DNA from: an uncultured Chloroflexia bacterium
Lineage (GTDB): Bacteria; Chloroflexota; Limnocylindria; Limnocylindrales; CSP1-4
Length of the DNA stretch: 64,000 nt
Direction: 5' to 3'
Assembly: GCA_963763775.1 (NCBI GenBank)
Contig: CAVXPZ010000004.1
Location: 64,001 to 128,000 of the forward strand
Shown: one piece after another, positions 1,010 through 12,499 of the stretch
How positions within the stretch are numbered: position 1 is the first letter of the stretch
How the letters are laid out: each line of letters begins with the position of its first letter
Translations under genes and position numbers: made by a program
The notes under the pieces: model-generated
Told to the model about the DNA's origin: nothing
What the model saw: only the letters and a program-made list of their open reading frames with translations
Databases searched by the model: none

Positions 1010-1399
1010 TCAGCCCCGGCGGGCCTCGGCTTCGATCTCGATGAGCAGGGTCGGGTCGATCAGGGCGCTGACCTCGACGAGCGTGGCCGCCGGGCGGATG
1101 TCCCCGAAGACCTCGCCATGGACCGCGAGGACCTCCGCGGAGCGGCCGATGTCGGTCACGAACATCCGCGTGCGCACGACGTCGGTCAGCGCGAACCCGG
1201 CCTCGGCGAGCGCGGTGTCGATGATCGCGAGCGTCGCCCGGGCCTGGCTGGCCACGTCTCCGGGATGCTGCGTGCGACCGTCCGGGCCCGCATCCGTCGT
1301 GCCCGAGACCCAGCACGCGTCGCCGACGACGATCGCGCGGCTGTAGCCGGCGGCGGCCTCCCACGGGCCGCCCGAGGTGATCCGGCGCCGTTCGGTCAC
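1010..1399 (-). CDS. RidA/YjgF family protein
   Basis: PWEAAAGYSRA...VSGTT, DVVRTR, IRPAATLVEV, LIEIEAEA motifs; GTG start at 1399. Confidence 0.9.
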   Translation of the reverse strand: MTERRRITSGGPWEAAAGYSRAIVVGDACWVSGTTDAGPDGRTQHPGDVASQARATLAIIDTALAEAGFALTDVVRTRMFVTDIGRSAEVLAVHGEVFGDIRPAATLVEVSALIDPTLLIEIEAEARRG

Positions 1400-1403
1400 G
1401 CCG

Positions 1404-2648
1404 TCACGCGGTCGCGTCCCGCCAGGCGAGCACCTCGGGGTCGCGCGCGATCGAGAGCAGGAGGCCCGCCAGCAGCGCCGTCCGCGGCACGATGGAGGTG
1501 ACCTCCAGGTACTCCGAGGGCGAGTGGTCGTTGCCGCCGATCGGCCCGAGCCCATCGAGGCTTGGCACGCCCATGCCCGACGTCGTGTTCGCGTCGGAGG
1601 CGCCACCCGTCGCCGCATCGCCGATCGTGAACCCGAGCGAGCCGGCGACCGCGCTGGCGTGCTGGACGAGTCGCCCACTCCGTGCGAGCTTCTCCATCGG
1701 CCACCAGCGGGCCATCGGCTCGAACTCGACCGTGATGTCCGGCACCACCGTCGCCTCGGCGATCCGACGGACCTCCGCCTCGGCCTCCTCGAGCTCGGCC
1801 CGGGCGACGCCGCGGACATCGACCTCGAGCGAGCACCGCTCCGGGACCACGTTCGGCCGCGTCCCCCCGGCGATGACCCCGACGTTCACGGTGACCCCCG
1901 GCCAGCGTCCGTTCAGATCGTGGAGGTCCCGGACGATCCGAGCGGCCTCGAGGATCGCGTTGCGGCCCTTCTCCGGTTCGACGCCGGCGTGCGCCGCGCG
2001 ACCGTGGACGGTCATCCGCAGGTCGAGGATCCCCTTCCGCGACGACACGATGTCGCCGTTGGCGCGGGCGCACTCGAGGACGAGGCATGCGTCGACGGAG
2101 GGCGCGATCTCCCGGATGTGCGGTGTCGAGGTCGGCGAGCCGATCTCCTCGTCGGGGTTCGCGATGAAGACCAGCTGCTCGAACGGCACGCCGCCGAGCT
2201 CGCCGATGAGCGCCTTCAGCGCGTACAGCCCGGCGAGCAGCCCCGACTTCATGTCGGTGACGCCCGGCCCGCGGGCGACGCCCTCGGCGATGTGGAAGGG
2301 CCGTTCCTCGGCCGTGCCCGGGTCGAAGACCGTGTCCATGTGCCCGATCAGGAGCACGCGCGGAGCGCCCGCGCGGCCCGCGAACGTGGCGATCACGGTG
2401 TCCCCGAGGCGACCCTCGGGGTCGGGCCGGACCTCGATCGTGGCGCCGAGCTCCGCGAGGAAGCCGGCCGTCCAGCGGCCGACCTCGTTCACGCCGTCGG
2501 GCGTGTAGCTCCCGCAGTCGATGTTGACCAGCCGCTCGAGATCGCGCAGGTAGTTCGGGAGGTCCGCTTCGATGGCGGCCCGGAGCGCATCGAGCTCGGG
2601 GGTCGGGGGCGCCGGCGTCTCGCCGGCCGGGGCGGTGAGGGCGTCCAT
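1404..2648 (-). CDS. M20 metallopeptidase (carboxypeptidase G2-like)
   Basis: GHMDTVF, GPGVTDMKSG, PDEEIGS, HAG and GGASDAN motifs; ATG at 2648 within ORF 1404..4676. Confidence 0.9.
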   Translation of the reverse strand: MDALTAPAGETPAPPTPELDALRAAIEADLPNYLRDLERLVNIDCGSYTPDGVNEVGRWTAGFLAELGATIEVRPDPEGRLGDTVIATFAGRAGAPRVLLIGHMDTVFDPGTAEERPFHIAEGVARGPGVTDMKSGLLAGLYALKALIGELGGVPFEQLVFIANPDEEIGSPTSTPHIREIAPSVDACLVLECARANGDIVSSRKGILDLRMTVHGRAAHAGVEPEKGRNAILEAARIVRDLHDLNGRWPGVTVNVGVIAGGTRPNVVPERCSLEVDVRGVARAELEEAEAEVRRIAEATVVPDITVEFEPMARWWPMEKLARSGRLVQHASAVAGSLGFTIGDAATGGASDANTTSGMGVPSLDGLGPIGGNDHSPSEYLEVTSIVPRTALLAGLLLSIARDPEVLAWRDATA

Positions 2649-2655
2649 GGCGGGG

Positions 2656-2684
2656 AGTCTAGCCCGGTGCCGGCTTGCTATCCT
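2656..2684. promoter_or_regulatory. Divergent leaderless -10 elements
   Basis: TAGACT (minus, 2656-2661) lies 7 nt before the M20 ATG; TGcTATCCT (plus, hexamer 2679-2684) lies 9 nt before the GTG at 2694; no SD on either side. Confidence 0.55.
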
Positions 2685-2693
2685 GCCCGGACC

Positions 2694-4454
2694 GTGCGAC
2701 TGGTCGAGACCCGCCTGTTCGAGGGCCCCAACGTGTACCGGCTCGAGCCGGTGGTCAAGGTCGAGCTGGCCGTCGGGAAGCGGCGGACCTTCTACGGCCA
2801 GCGCGACCCGGGCCGGCATGCGCTGGTCCGCCTCGGCGCCCTGGTCCCGGCCCGCGAGTGGCCCGATGGGATCGCCGGCGTCGTGGCCTGGGTCCGCCGA
2901 CTGCGGGCGGACCACGGCGAAGGGACCGGCGGGGTCGGCGTCCACCGTTCGTCCGACCCGGGCCACTGGCTCGTGACGTTCCCGTGGCGCGGCGAGGAGC
3001 GCGCTCGGACGATCACCGACGCGGCGCTGGCCCTCGCCGAGCGCGACGTCTCGCCGTCGCGGACCGCGCGCCTGACCGGCGCGCAGGAACGCCTGCTCGA
3101 CCGGTGGACCGAGCGGATCGCGGCCGCGGGGACGGCACCGCCCACGTGGGTGCGCGACGCCGATCGACACATCCCGGTCATCTCGATCTCGGGCACGAAC
3201 GGCAAGTCCACCGTCACCCGGCTCATCAGCCACATCCTCATCGGCGCCGGACGACATGTCGGGACCACCACGTCGGACGGTGTCCTGGTCGACGAGCGGA
3301 TGGTCGACCCGGGCGACTGGACGGGTCCCGGCGGCGCGCACCAGATCCTCGGCCGCCGCGACCTCGACGTCGCCGTGCTCGAGACGGCCCGGGGTGGGAT
3401 CGTCCTGCGCGGCGTCGGCTATGAGTCGAACGAGGCCAGCGTCCTGACGAACGTCTCGTCGGACCACCTCGACCTCCAGGGGATCCACACCCTCCCCGAG
3501 CTCGCGGAGGTCAAGTCCACGATCTGCCGCATCACCAAGCGGGGCGGCTGGGTCGTGCTCAACGCGGACGACCCGCTCGTGGCGGCGGTGGCGCGACGGA
3601 CGCACGCCCACGTGGCGTTCTTCTCGATCGCCGACGAGTCCGCGGTGATCCGGCGGCATCGGGCGGCTGGCGGCCGCGCCTACGTCGTGCGGCGTGGTGT
3701 CATCGTCGAGGCAGATGGCGACCGCGAGACCGAGATCGTCGACGTCGCGCGGGTGCCGATCACCATCGGCGGCCTCGCGCGGCATAACGTCGCCAACGCC
3801 CTCGCCGCGGCCGGCGGGGCGCGCGGCCTGGGGGCGACCATCGAGCAGGTCCACGACGGGCTCGTCGACTTCGGACCGACATCGGAGCGGTCGCCGGGCC
3901 GGCTGAACCTGTACCGCCTCGGGGCCCGGGTCGTGATCGTCGACTTCGCCCACAACGAGGCCGGGATCGCCGCGGTCCTCGATGTCGCCGAGGGGATCGC
4001 CGGCGGCGCGGCCGGACGTGCCGCGCCCATCACGGCGATCATCGGCACGGCCGGCGACCGGCCGGACGACACGTTGCGCGGGATCGGGCGGATCGCCGCC
4101 CAGCGCGCGCAACGCGTCGCGATCAAGCAGACGCTGCGATACCTGCGAGGGCGGACGGCCGACTCGGTCGTCGGCGAGCTGCTGGCGGGCGTGGAGGAGG
4201 GCGGCGGCGACCCTTCGACCGTGCCGGTCTACGAGACCGAGCCCGAAGCCCTGCGAGCCGAGCTGAACGGCGCGGCCGGGCATGGGTCGGACGGCGGCCG
4301 TGTCGATGGCCCGCGGGTCGTGGTGCTGATGTGCCATGAGGACCGTGACGGCGTGTTCCGCGTGCTCGAGGAGCTCGGGGCGCGGCCCGTGGACGTCGCC
4401 TCCGAGCTGACCGAGCTGGTGCCGCGGCTGCAGACGCGGCCGCGACGCGCCTGA
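2694..4454 (+). CDS. Cyanophycin synthetase-like protein with N domain and Mur-ligase domain but no ATP-grasp domain (586 aa)
   Basis: N-terminus RLVETRLFEGPNVY..EPVVK aligns to the CphA1 N-terminus, then runs directly into IPVISISGTNGKST, ETARGG, TNVSSDHL, PGRLN, DFAHN, GDRPDD and LRGR. Confidence 0.85.
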   Translation: MRLVETRLFEGPNVYRLEPVVKVELAVGKRRTFYGQRDPGRHALVRLGALVPAREWPDGIAGVVAWVRRLRADHGEGTGGVGVHRSSDPGHWLVTFPWRGEERARTITDAALALAERDVSPSRTARLTGAQERLLDRWTERIAAAGTAPPTWVRDADRHIPVISISGTNGKSTVTRLISHILIGAGRHVGTTTSDGVLVDERMVDPGDWTGPGGAHQILGRRDLDVAVLETARGGIVLRGVGYESNEASVLTNVSSDHLDLQGIHTLPELAEVKSTICRITKRGGWVVLNADDPLVAAVARRTHAHVAFFSIADESAVIRRHRAAGGRAYVVRRGVIVEADGDRETEIVDVARVPITIGGLARHNVANALAAAGGARGLGATIEQVHDGLVDFGPTSERSPGRLNLYRLGARVVIVDFAHNEAGIAAVLDVAEGIAGGAAGRAAPITAIIGTAGDRPDDTLRGIGRIAAQRAQRVAIKQTLRYLRGRTADSVVGELLAGVEEGGGDPSTVPVYETEPEALRAELNGAAGHGSDGGRVDGPRVVVLMCHEDRDGVFRVLEELGARPVDVASELTELVPRLQTRPRRA

Positions 4455-4668
4455 CACGCGGGCCTTGCGCGGGCGTGCGCGGGCGTGCGCGGGCCGGGTA
4501 CTCCCAGTGGCAGTTCCCCGACAGGTTCCTCGTGGACTCGCGCGGAATCGACCGGTCGCCGTCGTTCCTGCCGGGCGACCACGCTCGGGCGTGCCCGAAG
4601 CGGTACTGACAGTTGCGTCGGCTGGTGGACGCGCCGCCGCGCCTGACGCGCAGGCCTTGCGCGGGCGT
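4446..4668 (+). repeat. 31-bp imperfect direct repeat bracketing a ~160-bp non-coding segment
   Basis: cgcgcctgacacgcgggccttgcgcgggcgt (4446-4476) versus cgcgcctgacgcgcaggccttgcgcgggcgt (4638-4668), 2 mismatches. Confidence 0.8.
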
Positions 4669-4746
4669 CGTCCCACGGCGCATCATCGTCGCGATGCCGG
4701 CCGGCCCCATCGGTCGACACTGGTCGGAGGGTACGAACCCGTGGAG

Positions 4747-4859: not shown

Positions 4860-5579
4860 TCAGGCGGGGCGCGGCCACCAGGCGACGACGTCGACCCGGG
4901 ACGCGAAGCGCAGATGCGGCGGTTCGTCGGGGAGCGTGAGGCCGTGCGCTTCGGCCATCGTCTCGATCTCGAACCGGGCCGCCGCTGGTTGGAGCGGCCA
5001 CGGGGCGTGCCGGATCTCGGTGCGCAGGACCTGACCGTCGCCGTCCATCGCGAACAGGCGCCAACGCTCGGTCAGCCACGCCTCGAGTGACCCGGGCGCG
5101 GCCCGCTCGACCGGTCCTGTCGGCCGGTATCTCGTTTCGAGCCGCGCCGGCGGCCCGCGGTGGTCGATCCGCACGGACCGGTAGTCGATGACCTCACGCA
5201 CGCGTCCCGTGGACATGCGCGCCTCGTAGTACGGCAGGTGGAACGCCGTTCGGGCACCCTCGACCGCCGGGCGACTGCCCGCATCGAGGCTCAGGAACCA
5301 GACGCCCGACCGGCCTCGATATCGGACGTACGTCCGCACGTTGAGCTCAGGAAACGCGCCGGCGACCGGCGGCGCCGGCAGACCCCGGATCCCGACGTCC
5401 TCCATCCGGAACGGGACGATGCCCAGGTAGGCACGGCCCTCGAACAGGTCGAGCTCGAGCGGTTCGGGCACCACCGCCCGGATGGCCGCCGGATCGATGG
5501 GCCAGTGCGCGAAGAGCAGGTCGCGCCACCGCATCCGCATCACCCACGGCCGTCGGCCGAGGTCGGGCAGCCGTGTCAT
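4860..5579 (-). CDS. DUF2071/YqjF family protein
   Basis: MRWRDLLFAHWP, FPELNVRTYV, GVWFLSLDA, WLTERW and HAPWPLQ motifs. Confidence 0.9.
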   Translation of the reverse strand: MTRLPDLGRRPWVMRMRWRDLLFAHWPIDPAAIRAVVPEPLELDLFEGRAYLGIVPFRMEDVGIRGLPAPPVAGAFPELNVRTYVRYRGRSGVWFLSLDAGSRPAVEGARTAFHLPYYEARMSTGRVREVIDYRSVRIDHRGPPARLETRYRPTGPVERAAPGSLEAWLTERWRLFAMDGDGQVLRTEIRHAPWPLQPAAARFEIETMAEAHGLTLPDEPPHLRFASRVDVVAWWPRPA

Positions 5580-5594
5580 GGGACGACGGCGGAC

Positions 5595-8450
5595 CTAGCC
5601 TTCGGGGGCCGTGAGCTCGCCCGGGTCCGCGAACGCCGTGCCCCCGCGCGACGTGCCGGACGCCGACATGGCCTCGCGGTAGACGCCGATCGCGTCGTCG
5701 ACGCAGCAGACCACGAGGTCGCCCGGGATCGCCCGTCGGAGCGCCGCCCGGACGGCGGTCATCTCCTCGAGGACCTTGTCGGCTCGGGCGGCTCGGGCAT
5801 GTCCGGCGGCCCGGGCCTTGCGAACCCCCTCGATGACGTTCGACGCGGTCTCGCCGGGTGCCCGTCCGCGAAGGTTCTTGTCCTCGCGCACGATGATCTC
5901 GTCGAACGCGGTCGCCGCGACGGCCCCGTACTCGCGCTGGTCGTCGTCGCGCCGGTCGCCGGGGATGCCGAGGACGCCGATCGCGCGGCCGGTCCGGAGC
6001 GCCGCCCCGCTCGGGCCGATCCGCCCGGCCTTCGTGACGGGCTCCTCCATCATCCGGTTGACGAAGTCGGCGAGCTGCCGCATGCCGTCGACGTTGTGGC
6101 AGTAGTCGATGACGACGCGGACACCGCCGACGTCGAGCAGGTTCAGCCGCCCGGGCGCCTGGAAGAACGACGTCGTGAACGTCCGCAGCCCTTGGCGGAT
6201 GTCATGCAGGTGCGCGCCCGCCGACCAGGCCGCCGCGGCCGCGGCCAACGCGTTGGCGACGTTCATCCGGGCACGGCCACCGAACGTGGCCGGGATGAGG
6301 TGCGTGTACAGCACCGGCATCGTGCGCGGGCCGAGCTTGAGCACGATGAGCTCGCCCTCCGAGGACGCCTCGAGGCAGAAAGCGGCACCGCCGCGACCCG
6401 TGTGGCCATCCACGCGGTCGTAGCCGTCCTCGCCCTTCGTCATCGACATGCTGAACAGCACGACTCGTCCCGAGCAGTGCCGGCCCATGCGGTAGACATG
6501 CGAGTCGTCGGCGTTGAGGACGGCGGTGCCGGATCGCGGCACGGCCTCCACGACCACGCCCTTGACGTTCGCGAGCTGGCCGATCGAGTCGATGCCGCCG
6601 AGCCCGAGGTGGTCGCCGGTCACGTTGGTCACCACGGCGACGTCGTTGCGGTCGTAGCCGAGGCCCTCGCGCAGGATCCCGCCGCGGGCCACCTCGAAGA
6701 CCGCCGTGTCCACGGTCGGGTTCTGGAGCACGGTCTGCGCCGACTTCGGGCCGGACATGTCGCCTTTTCTGATCAGCCGGCCGTCGACGACGATGCCGTC
6801 CGTCGAGGTCATGCCGACCCGCCGGCCCATCAGCTTGAGGATGTGGGCGATCATCCGGACCGTCGTCGTCTTGCCGTTGGTGCCGGTCACCGCGACGATC
6901 GGGATCCTCGCCGACGACCCTGGCGGGAACAGGGAATCGATGACGGGGCGGGCCACGTATTGCGGCTCCCCCTCGGTCGGGTGGGTGTGCATCCGGAACC
7001 CGGGCGCCGCGTTGACCTCGACGATCGCCCCGCCGGTCTCCCGGACGGGGGTCGCGATGTCCGGACAGATGAAGTCGATGCCGGCGACGTCGAGGCCGAC
7101 GATCTGCGCCGCCGTCTCGGCGATCTCGACGTTGTCCGGGTGCGCCTCGATGGTCCGGTCGATGGACGTGCCGCCCGTCGACATGTTGCCGGTCAGCGCG
7201 AGCTTCACGCGCGTGCCCGCCGGCGGGACCGCGTCCAGGCTCAGTCCCTGGGCCGAGACGAGGGCCTCGGCCGCCTCGTCCATCTTGATCCGCGTCAGGA
7301 CCTTCTCGTGCCCGATCCCGCGACGCGGGTCCTGGTTGGCGAGGTCGACGAGCTCGCGGACGGTATGCGACCCGTCGCCGGTCACCGACGCCGGCACCCG
7401 CTCGGCGATGGCCGCCACCTTGCCACCGATCACGAGGCAGCGGTAGTCGTTGCCGGCGACGTACGTCTCGACGACCAGGTCGCCGGACCGGCTCTCGGAT
7501 CGCGCACCGTGGAAGGCGGCACGGACCGCCTCCTCGGACTGCAGGTCGAGATGGACGCCGCGGCCGTGGTTCCCGTCGAGCGGCTTCACCACGCACGGGT
7601 ACCCGAGGCGCTTGGCGGCCGCGACGGTCTCGTCCTCGGTCTCGACCACCTCGGACCGCGGCACGGGCAGGCCGGCCGAGTCGAGCAGCCGATTCGTCAG
7701 GCTCTTGTCCGACGCGATGTCGACGCCGATCGCGGAGGTCTGCGACGTCATCGTCGCGCGGATCCGCTGCTGGTGGACCCCGTGGCCGAACTGGACGAGC
7801 GAGTGCCGGTCGAGCCGGATGAACGGGATGTCGCGGCTCACCGCCTCGTCGATGAGGGCCTGCGTCGACGGCCCGAAGGCCTGTCGCTCGGCCTGGCGGA
7901 TCAGCCGTTCGAGCTCGACGGCGAAATCGAAGAAGACCTCGGGATCGTCGGGCGCGACCAGGTGGTTGACGAGGCGGACGGCCATCCGACCGGCCTCGAG
8001 GCCGACCTGCTCCTCGCGGTACTCGTAGATGCAGTTGTACTGGCCGGGCTTCCCGGCCGAGCGCGTCTTGCCGTGGCGGACATCCGTGCCCGCGAGGTTC
8101 TGGAATTCGAGCGCGACGTGCTCGGCGATGTGCCCCGCCCACGTCCCGTCGCGCAGGCGCGTGATGAAACCGCCGCGCCGGCCGAGCGAGCAGGCGTGGT
8201 CCTCGAGCGTCGGCATCAGCGCGACGAGCGCGTCGGTGAAGTTCGGGAGCTTGTTCGACGGGTAGTCCTCGAGGACGCCGAGGTCGACGAGCATCCGGAT
8301 GACGGGCTCGCGCGCCCAGTAGTTGGGACCGCGCAGGACGCGAGTCTCCAGGATCCGCAGGGTCGGGGCCGGACCCGATGTGGGCGTCCCGGCCTTCGCC
8401 ACGCGGGAACCGCCGCGCTTGGAGCGGGACGCGGGTGCGGTCTGGGCCAC
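5595..8450 (-). CDS. cphA: Cyanophycin synthetase CphA1
   Basis: N domain with Cx19HxxEH; FGPST; ATP-grasp (VKPLDGNHGRGV, NMSTGG, EVNAAPGFRMH); Mur domain (GTNGKTT, EVARGG, DYCHN); SD GAGGAG. Confidence 0.97.
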   Translation of the reverse strand: MAQTAPASRSKRGGSRVAKAGTPTSGPAPTLRILETRVLRGPNYWAREPVIRMLVDLGVLEDYPSNKLPNFTDALVALMPTLEDHACSLGRRGGFITRLRDGTWAGHIAEHVALEFQNLAGTDVRHGKTRSAGKPGQYNCIYEYREEQVGLEAGRMAVRLVNHLVAPDDPEVFFDFAVELERLIRQAERQAFGPSTQALIDEAVSRDIPFIRLDRHSLVQFGHGVHQQRIRATMTSQTSAIGVDIASDKSLTNRLLDSAGLPVPRSEVVETEDETVAAAKRLGYPCVVKPLDGNHGRGVHLDLQSEEAVRAAFHGARSESRSGDLVVETYVAGNDYRCLVIGGKVAAIAERVPASVTGDGSHTVRELVDLANQDPRRGIGHEKVLTRIKMDEAAEALVSAQGLSLDAVPPAGTRVKLALTGNMSTGGTSIDRTIEAHPDNVEIAETAAQIVGLDVAGIDFICPDIATPVRETGGAIVEVNAAPGFRMHTHPTEGEPQYVARPVIDSLFPPGSSARIPIVAVTGTNGKTTTVRMIAHILKLMGRRVGMTSTDGIVVDGRLIRKGDMSGPKSAQTVLQNPTVDTAVFEVARGGILREGLGYDRNDVAVVTNVTGDHLGLGGIDSIGQLANVKGVVVEAVPRSGTAVLNADDSHVYRMGRHCSGRVVLFSMSMTKGEDGYDRVDGHTGRGGAAFCLEASSEGELIVLKLGPRTMPVLYTHLIPATFGGRARMNVANALAAAAAAWSAGAHLHDIRQGLRTFTTSFFQAPGRLNLLDVGGVRVVIDYCHNVDGMRQLADFVNRMMEEPVTKAGRIGPSGAALRTGRAIGVLGIPGDRRDDDQREYGAVAATAFDEIIVREDKNLRGRAPGETASNVIEGVRKARAAGHARAARADKVLEEMTAVRAALRRAIPGDLVVCCVDDAIGVYREAMSASGTSRGGTAFADPGELTAPEG

Positions 8451-8493
8451 GGGAGTCCTCCTCGGTCGGCGGCGGCGGCCGCCCGGATCGGTC

Positions 8494-9330
8494 CTAGCTG
8501 GAGGCGGCCTCGCCGCCGGGAAGGGCGTGGAGCGTGGGCGTCGAGATCCGGGCGCGGTGCCGGAGGTCGAATCGGTACCCGGCCGGCAGGGAGTGCAGCA
8601 CGACGCCGCTGATCATGAGCGGCCGGTGGCCGCGGACCTCCCACGCGTCGGTCTCGGATTGGGCGCCGTCGACGACGGTGATCGAGCCGCGGCCGATGAC
8701 TTCGAGGATGCCGTCCGGGCCGACCACGCCGGCCGTGTCCTCGTCCACGCCGAGGCCGAGCAGCGACGGGTTCTGGGCGATCAGGCTCAGCAGGCGGCCC
8801 AGCCGGTTCCGCTGCTGGAAGTGCTGGTCGACGATGACGCCGGGCAGCACCCCGAGCCCGGCGGAGATCTGCGCCATCCGGTGCTTTGGCGTCGCGCCCG
8901 ACGCGCCGAACGCGATCATGTGGCTCGACATCGCGGAGGCGCCGGCGGACGTCCCCGCCACCACGGCGCCGTGGCGGAACCGTTCCAGGATCGCATCGGC
9001 CAGCCGCGTGCCGCCGATCGTGGACGACAGTCGGAGCTGGTTCCCGCCGGTGAGGAAGATGCCGGTCGCATCGCGCACGGCCAGGGCGGCGTCCGGGTCG
9101 TTCGCCTGCGGGCGGGTCACGGCGTGGAGGAGCTTGACCCGCGTCACGCCGAGTTCCGCGAACACAGCCTTGTACCGCTCGCCTGCCTCGAGCCCCAGCG
9201 ACGAGGCGGTCGAGATGACGGCGATCGTGGCATCGACGCCGCCCGCGAGCGCGACGAACCGGCTGAGGATGACCCGATCCCGGACCTTGTCCTCTGCGCC
9301 GCCGATGATGATGACGGTCCCTTCGGCCAC
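8494..9330 (-). CDS. cphB: Cyanophycinase
   Basis: IIGGAEDK, GGNQLRL, GTSAGA (Ser), DQHFQQRNRLGRL (His), GVDEDT (Glu); lies just upstream of cphA. Confidence 0.95.
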   Translation of the reverse strand: MAEGTVIIIGGAEDKVRDRVILSRFVALAGGVDATIAVISTASSLGLEAGERYKAVFAELGVTRVKLLHAVTRPQANDPDAALAVRDATGIFLTGGNQLRLSSTIGGTRLADAILERFRHGAVVAGTSAGASAMSSHMIAFGASGATPKHRMAQISAGLGVLPGVIVDQHFQQRNRLGRLLSLIAQNPSLLGLGVDEDTAGVVGPDGILEVIGRGSITVVDGAQSETDAWEVRGHRPLMISGVVLHSLPAGYRFDLRHRARISTPTLHALPGGEAASS

Positions 9331-9427
9331 GAGCTCCACGTGCTTCGGCGTTCGTTGGCGGTGAGGATACCGCCTCGAAGCCGACCGCCGCCGAACGGCT
9401 GACCGTCCGTGCGAGAATCCGCGTGCC

Positions 9428-10397
9428 ATGGCCGACGACGACGAGCCAGCCGGACTCCGCCCGATCCCGGGGTCGGCGCGCGGCCGCGGCCGGATCGTCG
9501 TGGACCTGGCCGACATGATCGACCGGCCGACGCGGCGTCGGGCCGGGGTCTTTCGTCGAGCGCTCCGACGCGAGGTGTCGCGACTCCACGACCCGCGGCG
9601 GATCGCGGCGATCGTGCTGCTGAGCCTCACGTTCGCGATGCTCGTCTCGGGGATGATCGCCCGCGGTGACGCGGGCGGCGCGGACGCCCGGGCGTATTGG
9701 GCCGGGGTCCGGATCTGGCTCAACGGCGGCGACCCGTACCACCCGACGGGGCCGTTCCTCCCGTACGTCTACGCCCCGTGGATGCTGCCGCTGTTCGCGC
9801 CCTGGGCGGTCCTGCCGTGGGATGTGGCCTGGTTCGTCTGGCGAGGCGGCACGATCCTGCTCCTGCTCTGGACGATCCACTGGGCGTACCGTCGCCGACC
9901 GTTGACCACGGCCGTGATCTTCGCGGTCCTCGCGTTCCCCTTCGGCGCGAACCTCGACACCGGGAACATCAACCTCCAGCTCACCCTGATGCTCTGGGCC
10001 GCCAACTTCACCGGCCCGCGGCTGGGCGGGCTCCTGTGGGCGCTCGCGACGTGGATGAAGTGGATCCCCGGTGATCTTCTGGCCGGTCCTGTCGCGCCCG
10101 GCGAAGGTCTGGGGGCTGGGCTGGCTGGCGGTCTCCATCGCCTTGAGCGTGGCCACGCTCCCGCTGACGATCATCCAGCTCCAGGTCCTGTTCGGGTTCG
10201 GGGCGCGACCGGTCCGCCTCGACTACCTCGTCTATCTCTGGGCCTTCGTCCCGTGGCTCTACCGACGGCCCGACCCGTTCGACTTCCTTCGTCCTGCCAC
10301 CTGGCGTCGCTGGGCGACGGCCCGGAGGCGACGCGGAGCGGCGGACCCGGCGGCGTCCCCCGACCCGGCGGAACCGAGTCAGGGCGCGGTCGTCTAG
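9428..10397 (+). CDS. GT87/DUF2029-like membrane glycosyltransferase (frameshift near 10070)
   Basis: DARAYW, PYVYAPW, GNIN and MKWIP motifs; continues in ORF 10071..10397. Confidence 0.75.
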
Positions 10398-11746
10398 GTC
10401 GCCGGTGCGGCGGTCGCCGGGGCCGCCACGAGGTCCTCGATATCCTCGCGCCGGCGCTGGTCGACGGGCCGGAGCAGGGCCGCCGCGACGATGAACAGGA
10501 CGATGCCGATCATCAGGGCGGCCCTTGGCCCCGCGCCCGACTCGTCGACCCCGCCGACGATGTCGATGACCGGTCCGCCGATGATCAACGCGAAGGCGCC
10601 GGCCGAGGCCGTCGCGACGTTGCTCATCCCCATGTACCGGCCCGACGCGGCCTTGGGGATGATGTCGGTCATCAGCGCCCAGTCGACCGCGAGGAACGCG
10701 CCCGCGCCGATCCCGACGCAGAGGATGCCGGCTTCCGCGACCGGCAGGCTCGGTGCGACCGTGAGGATCGTCATGCCCACCGCCCCGAGCACGCACGCGG
10801 CGTAGATGACGGCCTTGCGGCCGACGCGATCGGAGAGCTTCGCGGCCGGAAGGGACGTGATCACGATGGCGATCGCGATGATCACGGCGGTGATCTTCAC
10901 CCACAATCCCTTCTCGTCGTCGGAGAGGCCCATGGACCGGCCGAGGTACAGCACGCTCAGCCCGGAGATCATCGAGACGCCGGTCAGGAAGAACAGCCGG
11001 GAGGCCACGAGCCAGACATAGCTGCGCTCCTTGAGGATGTCCGTGCCCCATGCCTCGGCGGCCACGGAGCCCCAGCCACGGCCCTCGCGGTCGCGAGCCT
11101 GCCGGCCTTCCCGGACCCACAGCACCGTGCCGACCATCGTCAGGAACTCGACGACACCCACGGCGATGAGGGGCACGGTGAAGTCCGGCGGCGTCGACGA
11201 GTAGCCGACCGAGGCGATCGCGATGCCGCCGACGTTGCCGAGGATCGACATGATCCCGACGAGGGCGCTGGCGAGCGCCACCTGCTGGGCGCCGACGAGG
11301 TCGGGGATGTAGCCCTGGAACGGACCCTGGGCGAAGTTCGAGCTGAACTGGAGCAGGACCACGAACGCCATCACGGCGAAGAACGTCTGCGACGTGGCGA
11401 TGCCGACCAGGAAGACCACGTCGAGCGTCGCCCCGATCGCGATGTACGGCTTGCGCCGTCCCCAGCGGCTCATCGTGTAGTCGCTGATGTTGCCGACCGT
11501 GGGCTGGACGACGATCGCGATCATGACGGCGGCGACCTTGATGACCGCGATGGCCGTGCCGCCGGTCCCTTGCGCCACGAGGTCCGGGACGCGCTCCTGG
11601 AGGATCACCCCATCCAGGGCGCCCCAGATCGCGTTGATCCCGAACCAGTAGATGGAGATCTGGAAGAGCTGGCGCAGCGGGAGCAGGGCCGTCGGGCGGC
11701 CGTCCGCGCCGAACGCGCTGGTCGCGGTGGCACTCGGGCTGTGCAT
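10394..11746 (-). CDS. MFS transporter
   Basis: About 12 TM segments; SDYTMSRWGRRKPY and LSDRVGRK loop motifs. Confidence 0.92.
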   Translation of the reverse strand: MHSPSATATSAFGADGRPTALLPLRQLFQISIYWFGINAIWGALDGVILQERVPDLVAQGTGGTAIAVIKVAAVMIAIVVQPTVGNISDYTMSRWGRRKPYIAIGATLDVVFLVGIATSQTFFAVMAFVVLLQFSSNFAQGPFQGYIPDLVGAQQVALASALVGIMSILGNVGGIAIASVGYSSTPPDFTVPLIAVGVVEFLTMVGTVLWVREGRQARDREGRGWGSVAAEAWGTDILKERSYVWLVASRLFFLTGVSMISGLSVLYLGRSMGLSDDEKGLWVKITAVIIAIAIVITSLPAAKLSDRVGRKAVIYAACVLGAVGMTILTVAPSLPVAEAGILCVGIGAGAFLAVDWALMTDIIPKAASGRYMGMSNVATASAGAFALIIGGPVIDIVGGVDESGAGPRAALMIGIVLFIVAAALLRPVDQRRREDIEDLVAAPATAAPAT

Positions 11747-11781
11747 CCGACCTCTCCGTCTAGCGGTCGCTGCGGGACATC

Positions 11782-12499
11782 CTACGCTTCGGGTATGGGC
11801 GTCCCGTCACGACCGAGGGCGACCGTCCGATGCAGGCCCACCAGACGACGGGCGGTCGCACCGGGAGCGACGAACCGGAAGAGCGATCGATCGAGGGAGT
11901 AGATCCCGGTCGAGACGACGCCGATCCGGCCCAGGGCGAAGGAGAACACCGGGTTCTCGCCGTTGCCCGCGTAGTGATACGGGGTCCCGTCGCCGGCGAG
12001 GACGGCAAGGTTCGCCTGGCCGCCGAACCGGTCGTGCAGCGCCCCCAGCAGGTGCGGGACGGGCTCGCCCCCGTGCCACGCATCCTCGAGCCAGCGCGCG
12101 CCGACCTCGGTGTCGGCCCGGCCGTGGATCCGGCCCTGCCCCCGGTACATCGGGCGGAGCGACTGGTAGTCCCGCAGGTCGCCGTTGTGGCTGAACGAGA
12201 ACCGGCCAGCCGGATCGTCGAACGGCTGCGTGTCGGGCAGGGTGAGCGTCGAGAGCCGCGACGGGCGGCGCAGGTGGACCAGCGCGGAGGTCGTCTCGAC
12301 GGCTCCGACGGTCGTTCCGGCCCGGATCTTCGCGGAACGCGCGCACGTCGCGGTACGACCGGATCTCGCCACGCTCGTCCAGCCATGCCGCGCCCCACCC
12401 GAACCCGGCGATCCCGAACCGCTCCAGCTTCTCGGCGAAGGGCCACAGGTCGTCGAGCCGGAACGGTTCCGCGGCGCGGACGATGAAGTGCTCGCACAT
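11782..12499 (-). CDS. Class II glutamine amidotransferase-like Ntn protein (frameshift near 12320)
   Basis: Met-Cys start, GWG, HLRR, DTQPF, HNG and DTE motifs split over ORFs 11807..12499 and 11782..12783; TATCAT 8 nt before the ATG. Confidence 0.75.

Follow-up and report, generated by a model that had tools for sequence, protein, structure and literature searches.

A widespread CphA relative without the ATP-grasp domain as a probable accessory enzyme of bacterial cyanophycin clusters

Two enzymes, CphA1 and CphA2, figure in current accounts of cyanophycin synthesis. The locus considered here lies in a stretch of 64,000 nucleotides (the window) from an uncultured Chloroflexia bacterium (GenBank assembly GCA_963763775.1, contig CAVXPZ010000004.1, positions 64,001 to 128,000), in which a gene for a CphA-like protein with an N-terminal (N) domain and a Mur-ligase (M) domain, and no ATP-grasp (G) domain, is found close to a complete cphA1. 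The locus raises the question of what such a protein, hereafter the N+M protein, does beside an intact CphA1. N+M proteins were found to be real, widespread and uncharacterised accessory enzymes of cyanophycin clusters. The reading preferred here, to which we assign a probability of roughly 0.55, is that the N+M protein is a trans-acting ATP-dependent cyanophycin side-chain ligase.

Architecture and lineage of the N+M protein

The gene occupies positions 2694-4454 of the window on the plus strand, begins with GTG and translates without stops to 586 amino acids (aa). Stop-free translation, third-position G+C (GC3) and the lengths of homologues all agree with the in-frame open reading frame (ORF) reported in a first-pass annotation of the window. 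GC3 was 0.91-0.96 in this frame from approximately position 2700 onwards, and the GTG start is backed by homologues of 586-587 aa with 99-100% query cover that begin M/V-R-L-V-E. A longer in-frame ORF at 1377-4454 was rejected as an artefact, positions 1404-2648 being coding on the minus strand by GC3. The G+C content of the window is 71%, and long spurious ORFs are consequently common; real genes were overlain by antisense or extended ORFs of 1025-1150 aa at 1377-4454 (+), 1404-4676 (-) and 5160-8612 (+), and two homologues of 712-715 aa (P0007 and P0040) may be over-extended gene calls of the same sort.

Pfam recognised Mur_ligase_M (PF08245) at residues 165-374 of the N+M protein (76.8 bits, cut-off 24) and Mur_ligase_C (PF02875) at residues 402-529 (29.9 bits, cut-off 28.4). 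No ATP-grasp family was matched in this search, whereas the neighbouring CphA1 matches eight. The CphA1 model TIGR02068 aligned at model positions 474-838 only, with 376 bits against a cut-off of 850, and the P-loop of the M domain begins at residue 167, straight after the N domain. The M domains of the N+M protein and the neighbouring CphA1 share 36% identity, and all of the M-domain motifs listed in the first-pass annotation are present (GTNGKS at 167, ETARGG at 230, DHL at 257, PGRLN at 401, DFAHN at 417, GDR at 454 and LRGR at 484).

The likeness of the N-terminus to that of CphA1, originally noted from the sequence alone, was borne out by BLASTP (residues 1-56 against residues 31-83 of the neighbouring CphA1, E 1e-4) and by hhalign, where a 53-member profile of residues 1-155 matched 14 CphA1 N domains (97.7%, E 2.5e-12, 145 columns) in an alignment spanning family residues 1-148. 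PF18921 fell short of the E 0.01 threshold in the Pfam search of the N+M protein. The Cys-bearing loop of CphA1 has no counterpart in the hhalign alignment, and the helix that carries HxxEH in CphA1 is retained with different residues. A motif scan of residues 1-160 found neither Cys nor HxxEH, whereas the neighbouring CphA1 has Cx19HxxEH at residue 87; an N+M architecture devoid of both the G domain and the hydrolase site, as proposed in the first-pass annotation, is therefore upheld. Among 24 diverse family members (32-42% identity to the N+M protein, except one close relative at 76%), R7, L9 and P12 are conserved in at least 90% and G11, N13 and P19 are invariant, making the N-terminal loop R7-L9-G11-P12-N13...P19 the best-conserved stretch of the N region. 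This loop corresponds to the hydrophobic N-terminal loop (Y14, I17) that touches the M domain in Synechocystis CphA1 (SuCphA1; PMC9262961; statements on published CphA enzymes follow the accessible portions of the articles cited).

An AlphaFold2 model built from a 53-sequence alignment had a mean predicted local distance difference test score of 90.5 and a predicted template modelling score of 0.91. Residues 1-562 of the model superposed in VIA-align on residues 1-877 of TeCphA1 (7wae_A) with Z 39.9 and a root-mean-square deviation of 2.8 Å over 507 residues. CphA1 structures overall gave Z 37-42 in VIA-align, against 24-26 for MurE (best 26), and the best Foldseek matches were SuCphA1 structures, with query-normalised template modelling scores of 0.74-0.76. 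With the apo structure 7wac (723 residues as solved), 359 residues aligned in VIA-align, within residues 1-395 of the model; the lid of TeCphA1 is poorly resolved in the apo state (PMC9427784). The N and M domains are thus predicted to pack as they do in CphA1, with the G domain simply missing.

In a word-indexed protein search, 4996 of 8000 scored candidates reached E ≤ 1e-10. The best 120 of the 4996 had 78-90% identity at 99-100% query cover, were 579-715 aa in length and contained Mur-ligase Pfam domains only, so that the closest homologues share both the length and the G-less domain content of the window protein. Their source names are 'cyanophycin synthetase' (JGI) and 'Mur ligase family protein' (NCBI; Chloroflexota, Limnocylindrales). 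An exhaustive search of 50%-identity representatives gave 8276 matches at E ≤ 0.001, 1202 of them with E ≤ 1e-30, including many proteins of 530-590 aa with 37-45% identity along the full query. Named genomes with the full-length architecture include Kribbella, Terrabacter, Nocardioides, Thermomicrobiales, Sphaerobacteraceae and further Actinomycetota and Chloroflexota.

The N+M family as defined in this analysis, which is not a curated family, comprises members from Chloroflexota, Actinomycetota, Proteobacteria, Myxococcota, Planctomycetota and Acidobacteriota. Its proposed features are a length of 530-600 aa, an R-x-L-x-G-P-N loop, an M domain, an aromatic residue ahead of xRGR in the lid and a cphA1 nearby, all of which apply to the window protein. 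Two subgroups can be told apart by their N-termini, R-L-V-E-x-R-x-L-x-G-P-N in subgroup 1 (that of the window protein) and x-D-S-R-R-L-T-G-P-N in subgroup 2. NCBIfam has no model for N+M proteins, and the clusters of the ESM Atlas carry automatic names only. In Terrabacter and relatives the N+M protein has a C-terminal TPR_5 domain and a length of 753-758 aa (L009:2372-4633 (+), L014:9911-12187 (+) and P0192), and TPR_5 occurs in 12% of members of one Atlas cluster; such a tail hints that some N+M proteins may have a protein partner. A further relative, P0144 (972 aa), contains tandem Mur-ligase modules in the order M-C-M-C.

Maximum likelihood (LG+G4) was used for a quick tree of 79 M domains, which was rooted on the window genome's own MurE, the partner CphA1 of locus L084 being left out. 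All 33 CphA1-type M domains formed one clade with a support of 100 in the Shimodaira-Hasegawa-like approximate likelihood ratio test (SH-aLRT), and the N+M proteins of both subgroups lay outside it. The N+M protein is an old, separate lineage. A recent deletion of the G domain from the neighbouring cphA1 was rejected, since the CphA1 M-domain clade excludes N+M proteins. Descent of CphA1 from an N+M ancestor was not supported: N+M proteins are basal in the free tree, but the approximately unbiased test is compatible with a single N+M clade, and the root is one long MurE branch. With all 45 N+M sequences constrained to one clade, that test did not reject the tree (p 0.636), which was 4.7 log-likelihood units better. 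Those CphA1s that are paired with an N+M protein form a cluster spanning phyla (SH-aLRT 97).

Four further G-less proteins, P0247 (533 aa), P0274 (581 aa), P0250 and P0258, have a Pfam-recognised CphA N domain with Mur ligase M and C domains and fell inside the CphA1 clade; P0247 and P0274 also show the lid motif of N+M proteins described below (aromatic, no Asp). The G-less architecture may have arisen more than once, though P0247 and P0274 could be fragments; unless they are, they suggest an independent loss of the G domain with the same motif change.

Linkage to cphA1, cphB and an M20 gene

The stop codons of the N+M gene and cphA1 are separated by 1140 bp in the window, in agreement with the 1.1 kb first reported; the two genes are on opposite strands and convergent, with a DUF2071 gene between them, and neither the strand difference nor the gene in between was mentioned in the first-pass annotation. 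A similar association was found elsewhere. Among 11 loci with a full-length N+M gene, one of which (L006) is without its downstream flank, nine had a complete cphA1 in the flank and eight of those nine also had cphB. In L012 there was no cphA1 within 10 kb, and cphA1 was located on another contig of the same genome. Both genes were present in all five genomes checked.

Within the class to which the window belongs, 107 of 201 genomes had a CphA-family match to TIGR02068, 98 a full CphA1 and 101 at least two matches; these tallies include the unpublished genomes G087, G096, G123 and G159, G087 and G123 being among those with M-only matches. Among the 150 matches listed, beyond which there are 70 more, the second matches that were not pieces of CphA1 all spanned model positions ~474-849, and the pairs were convergent with CphA1 except in G048 and G153, where the two are on separate contigs. 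In the taxonomic family of the window, an N-domain query matched 36 of 60 genomes, all within the 37 that are positive for the CphA family, and none of the 23 genomes without a CphA-family match. One genome of the same family (G053, 94% complete) carries a partial N+M gene at G053:C24:181049-181273, covering residues 81-155 in a 399-aa open frame, with no CphA1 match; this locus may be a decaying cyanophycin cluster. In the sister family f4 the single-sequence N-domain query, which was too weak for that family, matched 0 of 66 genomes, and M-only TIGR02068 matches exist there.

In the Actinomycetes and Gammaproteobacteria two candidates were scored per genome. A full CphA1 was present in 54 of 401 Actinomycete genomes, 46 of which also had an M-only match; 42 of these 46 pairs shared a contig at a distance of 0.1-11.2 kb, without exception in convergent orientation. 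An M-only match without CphA1 was seen in a single Actinomycete genome (G502). Both scored candidates were CphA1 pieces in G221, G253, G277, G378 and G416, which gives no N+M call either way, and G224, with an ATP-grasp match alone, is counted in no N+M tally. Among 400 Gammaproteobacteria, 15 had a full CphA1 and five of these an M-only neighbour.

Gene order differs between the subgroups. In seven of ten subgroup 2 loci, from Planctomycetota, Gammaproteobacteria, Betaproteobacteria and Myxococcota, the genes run co-directionally as cphB-cphA1-N+M with the N+M gene ~0.2-2.2 kb downstream, as against the convergent arrangement of Actinomycetota and Chloroflexota; two of the ten, both from Acidobacteriota, are convergent with cphA1. 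Examples are found among L084-L092, including Plesiocystis pacifica (L091:8001-9773) and Luteimonas lutimaris (L092). The class, Actinomycete and subgroup 2 counts all show linkage, and the genomic linkage of N+M genes to cphA1 and cphB is tight in at least five phyla, in keeping with the cyanophycin role proposed in the first-pass annotation.

A spacer of 45 bp separates the N+M gene from a divergently oriented gene for an M20/CPG2-like metallo-amidohydrolase, whose closest model is a CPG2-like 'glutamate carboxypeptidase' (294 bits, under the cut-off of 349). Co-occurrence with M20, which had been raised as a question at the outset, was observed in all eight sampled loci of the class, where the M20 gene adjoins the N+M gene, and in L001. 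The listing of sampled loci left out N+M matches of less than 45% identity, and L155, L156 and L161 therefore stand without an N+M entry; the N+M gene was nonetheless recorded by the TIGR02068 search for G003 (L155) and G132 (L161). The window's genome (87% complete) had no match to IaaA (PF01112), IadA (TIGR01975) or the AstE/AspA model PF04952. Together with its adjacency, this makes the M20 protein a candidate either for the beta-Asp-Arg dipeptidase that is missing here or for an enzyme that removes side chains. The accessible portions of three surveys of cyanophycin cluster genes (PMC10206079, PMC10273328, PMC9974463) name IadA, IaaA, CphZ/M14, an S9 peptidase and a cocaine-esterase-like protein, and neither a ligase of this kind nor an M20 enzyme.

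Catalytic residues, lid motif and proposed function

Residue roles reported for TeCphA1, including the ATP and Mg ligands of its M domain (PMC9427784), were mapped onto the N+M protein by phmmer alignment. N497, K499, T500, T522, E558, R731, H748 and A755 of TeCphA1 correspond to N169, K171, S172, S194, E230, R403, H420 and A427, respectively. F692 corresponds to H364, the sole non-conservative change in the mapped set; the CphA1 encoded in the window has Met here. The D585/H586 pair that was mutated to give an M-inactive SuCphA1 (PMC9262961) corresponds to D257/H258, the M domain matching that of SuCphA1 with E 1e-68 in phmmer. Residues N169, K171, E230, D257, H258, K274, R403 and H420 are invariant in the 24 family members. 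The counterpart of K274 in MurE is a Lys that becomes carbamylated. Since these residues are invariant across diverse members, the M domain looks catalytically active, and its initial description as intact is sustained by every mapped ATP/Mg catalytic residue being kept.

Few positions separate the M domains of N+M proteins from those of CphA1, and the lid is the clearest of them. This comparison was made between 26 + 17 N+M proteins and 25 CphA1 M domains, excluding 'mid' and MurE sequences and with P0268 placed in subgroup 2 after inspection of the tree. The CphA1 lid motif is [KR]-[EQR]-D-x-x-[LTP]-R-G-R, with Asp in 24 of 25 sequences and no aromatic residue ahead of xRGR. The lid of N+M proteins is one residue longer, has Tyr, Phe or His right before xRGR in 41 of 43 and is missing the Asp in 38 of 43; that of the window protein reads IKQTLRYLRGR and ends at residue 487. 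Of the two lid differences that had been taken as signs of altered specificity in the first-pass annotation, KQTLRYLRGR versus REDKNLRGR proved to be a family-wide signature, whereas DFAHNEAG versus DYCHNVDG did not hold, the F/Y difference varying within N+M proteins.

The lid motif is aligned with D-E-D-P-R of the window genome's own MurE, which we take to be the counterpart of the DNPR motif by which MurE recognises the incoming diamino acid. The loss of an acidic residue at the amino-acid site would fit a non-Arg substrate and is a lead in that direction; the amino acid used may differ from that of CphA1. With the recognition motif altered throughout the family, the odds between Arg and a non-Arg amino acid are roughly even.

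We infer that cyanophycin is the substrate and side-chain ligation the reaction, because the parts that surround the polymer end are kept, the catalytic residues are intact and the linkage to cphA1 and cphB is strict. A cyanophycin analogue bound at the M site of CphA1 is flanked by the N domain and the M core (PMC9427784). By the same geometry, the N+M protein would act in trans on what the neighbouring CphA1 makes, a cyanophycin chain or oligomer being held in the groove between N domain and M core. With ATP, a carboxylate left free on the polymer would be phosphorylated (by analogy this would be the beta-carboxylate of an Asp without a side chain), and an amino acid would then be coupled to that carboxylate by an isopeptide bond. 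Extension of the Asp backbone in the manner of CphA1 is impossible for a protein that has no ATP-grasp domain, and the N+M protein presumably works like the M half of CphA1. Beside a complete CphA1, possible roles are the addition of a second type of side chain, the refilling of side chains that have been removed and action on short breakdown products.

Several points weigh against this reading. The M domain of CphA1 is itself intact, K527, E586, D613, H614, R768 and H785 being invariant in the CphA1 alignment, so there is no obvious need for another enzyme that does the same chemistry. The G and M reactions of CphA1 take place by turns at the end of the chain, and free Asp side chains may never exist on the polymer in vivo. 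Four of the 54 Actinomycete and six of the 15 Gammaproteobacteria genomes with cphA1 showed no M-only match and no second cphA-like gene; the N+M protein is thus an accessory and not a requirement. A full-length CphA1, P0241, carries the lid motif of N+M proteins, so that this signature is not exclusive to them, and a role in Arg binding for the Asp invariant in CphA1 is suggested by analogy with the MurE motif. Lastly, the structural argument uses a predicted model, whose N-M packing could partly reflect CphA1 structures that may have been public when AlphaFold was trained.

A bolder extension of the side-chain ligase reading is conceivable but doubtful. According to this, the 'cyanophycin' of Actinomycetota, Chloroflexota and other phyla would need, in addition to CphA1, a dedicated trans-acting ligase to finish it, which adds a second, non-Arg side chain or re-loads amino acids onto a persistent poly-Asp backbone and, in the class of the window, works against an M20 enzyme that strips side chains or splits dipeptides. 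Nitrogen would then be stored in a polymer that can be recharged or is chemically distinct, and the N+M protein would join CphA1 and CphA2 as a third functional class of synthetase.

Among the alternatives, an unlikely one that nonetheless survives best is a small-molecule ligase that joins beta-aspartyl dipeptides or short oligomers (e.g. Asp + Arg, or cyanophycinase products) in priming or recycling for CphA1. The catalytic machinery and the linkage to cphA1 and cphB fit such an enzyme as well as they fit a polymer ligase, and the 45-bp divergent spacer to the M20 amidohydrolase gene would fit dipeptide turnover. CphA1 is indeed very slow at its first, unprimed steps (PMC9262961), yet the primer-generating C..HxxEH site was kept in 19 of 19 partner CphA1s examined, leaving little motive for a separate supplier of primers. 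A full-length polymer-holding N domain in CphA1 geometry is also hard to reconcile with a dipeptide substrate.

Somewhat less likely again is that the N+M protein is a structural or regulatory partner that joins or caps the CphA1 oligomer or holds the polymer, its own catalysis being secondary or unused. The retention of the P-loop Lys, the Mg-binding Glu, the D-H pair, the lid Arg and His and the MurE-type Lys across phyla, at 33-45% identity, would not be expected of a purely structural protein. SuCphA1 needs W672 for tetramer formation (PMC9262961), and the aligned residue of the N+M protein is Arg344. What speaks for a partner of this kind is the strict linkage to cphA1, the single clade formed by partner CphA1s of different phyla, which fits a co-inherited working pair, the TPR_5 protein-interaction domain at the C-terminus of some members, and the example of CphA2, which shows that non-catalytic domains are tolerated in this family (PMC10273328).

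An ordinary Mur-type ligase of cell wall, folate or capsule synthesis, lying near cphA1 incidentally, is very improbable. Pfam does find Mur ligase M and C domains only, and the NCBI label points the same way; the genome's own MurE, however, scores 465 bits, while the N+M protein reaches 92-106 bits against MurE-model cut-offs of 257-373. Its nearest solved and profile relatives are the M domains of CphA1 and not MurC-F, its N-terminal domain is a CphA N domain and not a UDP-MurNAc-binding one, and within one taxonomic family it is found in 36 of 37 CphA-positive genomes and in none of 23 negative ones. A decaying cphA1 duplicate minus its G domain, a pseudogene or a misassembly has a negligible probability, since nothing beyond the missing G domain favours it and it is contradicted by the intact frame with GC3 of 0.91-0.96, the same architecture in the 120 best matches and in cultured Kribbella and Terrabacter with complete genomes, and the position outside the CphA1 M-domain clade.

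The locus and comparison with known systems

The features of the locus are collected in Table 1. The DUF2071 gene is on the cphA1 strand, 15 bp past the cphA1 stop, and also has a weak acetoacetate-decarboxylase-like match; no counterpart was found by tblastn in the other loci examined. An 824-aa ORF at 9428-11902 (+) with a weak GT87 match (E 1.9e-9) overlaps the major facilitator superfamily (MFS) transporter gene of the opposite strand (GC3 0.96).

Table 1. Coordinates of the locus, as window positions, and of second cphA-like genes in other genomes
Feature	Position	Strand	Evidence and remarks
N+M gene	2694-4454	+	Translation, GC3, Pfam, NCBIfam, homologues, AlphaFold2 model
N domain, CphA-type (~residues 1-155)	2694-3158	+	hhalign, superposition, invariant columns
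M domain (Mur-ligase core and lid)	3159-4454	+	PF08245, PF02875, residue mapping to TeCphA1
RidA	~1010-1370	-	Pfam or NCBIfam match
M20/CPG2-like metallo-amidohydrolase	1404-2648	-	Translation, Pfam, NCBIfam; ATG start at 2648
DUF2071 (COG2071) gene	4860-5579	-	PF09844, E 3.8e-74
cphA1, 951-aa ORF, N+G+M domains	5595-8450	-	TIGR02068, 1137 bits (cut-off 850); PF18921, ATP-grasp, Mur ligase M/C
cphB, cyanophycinase (peptidase S51)	8494-9723	-	PF03575; TIGR02069, 261 bits (cut-off 126.6)
MFS transporter, upstream of cphB, same strand	10394-11746	-	PF07690; present in L001 too
Second cphA-like gene	G926:C1:5091501-5093666
Second cphA-like gene	G912:C2:18847-20982
Second cphA-like gene	G759:C1:81024-82898
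Second cphA-like gene	G739:C45:12782-13696

With CphA1 (TIGR02068; 7LG5, 7LGQ, 7WAE) the N+M protein shares the N domain, the M domain, their predicted packing and the ATP and Mg residues. It differs in having no G domain, Cys loop or HxxEH residues, in its TIGR02068 score, in the altered lid and in its separate M-domain lineage. CphA2 keeps the G domain, has a truncated and inactive M domain, polymerises beta-Asp-Arg dipeptides and is described as cyanobacterial (PMC10273328); its N domain is without the hydrolase motif (PMC9262961, PMC10273328). Both are therefore CphA1 relatives that have an N domain minus the hydrolase motif and keep one catalytic activity, but the N+M protein is without G and has a complete, apparently active M domain and lid, and its family occurs in the six non-cyanobacterial phyla given above. 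Its original description as the mirror image of CphA2 is fair on the published account of the latter (PMC10273328).

MurC, MurD, MurE and MurF share with the N+M protein the fold of the central and C-terminal domains and ATP-dependent acyl-phosphate chemistry, and MurE in addition a lid motif that aligns with its DNPR-type motif and a structural Z of 24-26. The N+M protein, in contrast, has the CphA N domain in place of a UDP-MurNAc domain, is below every MurC-F model cut-off and lies in a cyanophycin context and not in a dcw cell-wall cluster. The N+M protein clearly belongs to the CphA family, and by its G domain, which is absent, it is neither a CphA1 nor a CphA2.

Second cphA-like genes beside cphA1 were also encountered in Gammaproteobacteria, matching TIGR02068 from position 1 to ~310-722, that is, N+G with M partly or wholly lost; the match in G926 contains one TAA. 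They are accessory to cphA1 like the N+M gene, yet keep the opposite part of the protein (N+G versus model positions 474-838).

A full-text literature search yielded no paper in which a CphA relative without the G domain is described, in accordance with the first-pass annotation, although a passing mention in subscription papers or supplements is possible; the name 'CphA3' was found in use only for an Aeromonas beta-lactamase.

The N+M protein would be a third architecture beside CphA1 and CphA2. If it does modify or re-charge the polymer, there is an important gap in what is known of the natural composition of cyanophycin outside the cyanobacteria. Tailored poly-Asp materials could also be made with such an enzyme as a ready tool, an active aim of biotechnology, and N+M proteins constitute a natural experiment on what the N domain contributes to the M reaction when G is absent. 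Cultured hosts that are not pathogens, Kribbella and Terrabacter, carry the N+M gene, and the question is therefore directly testable.

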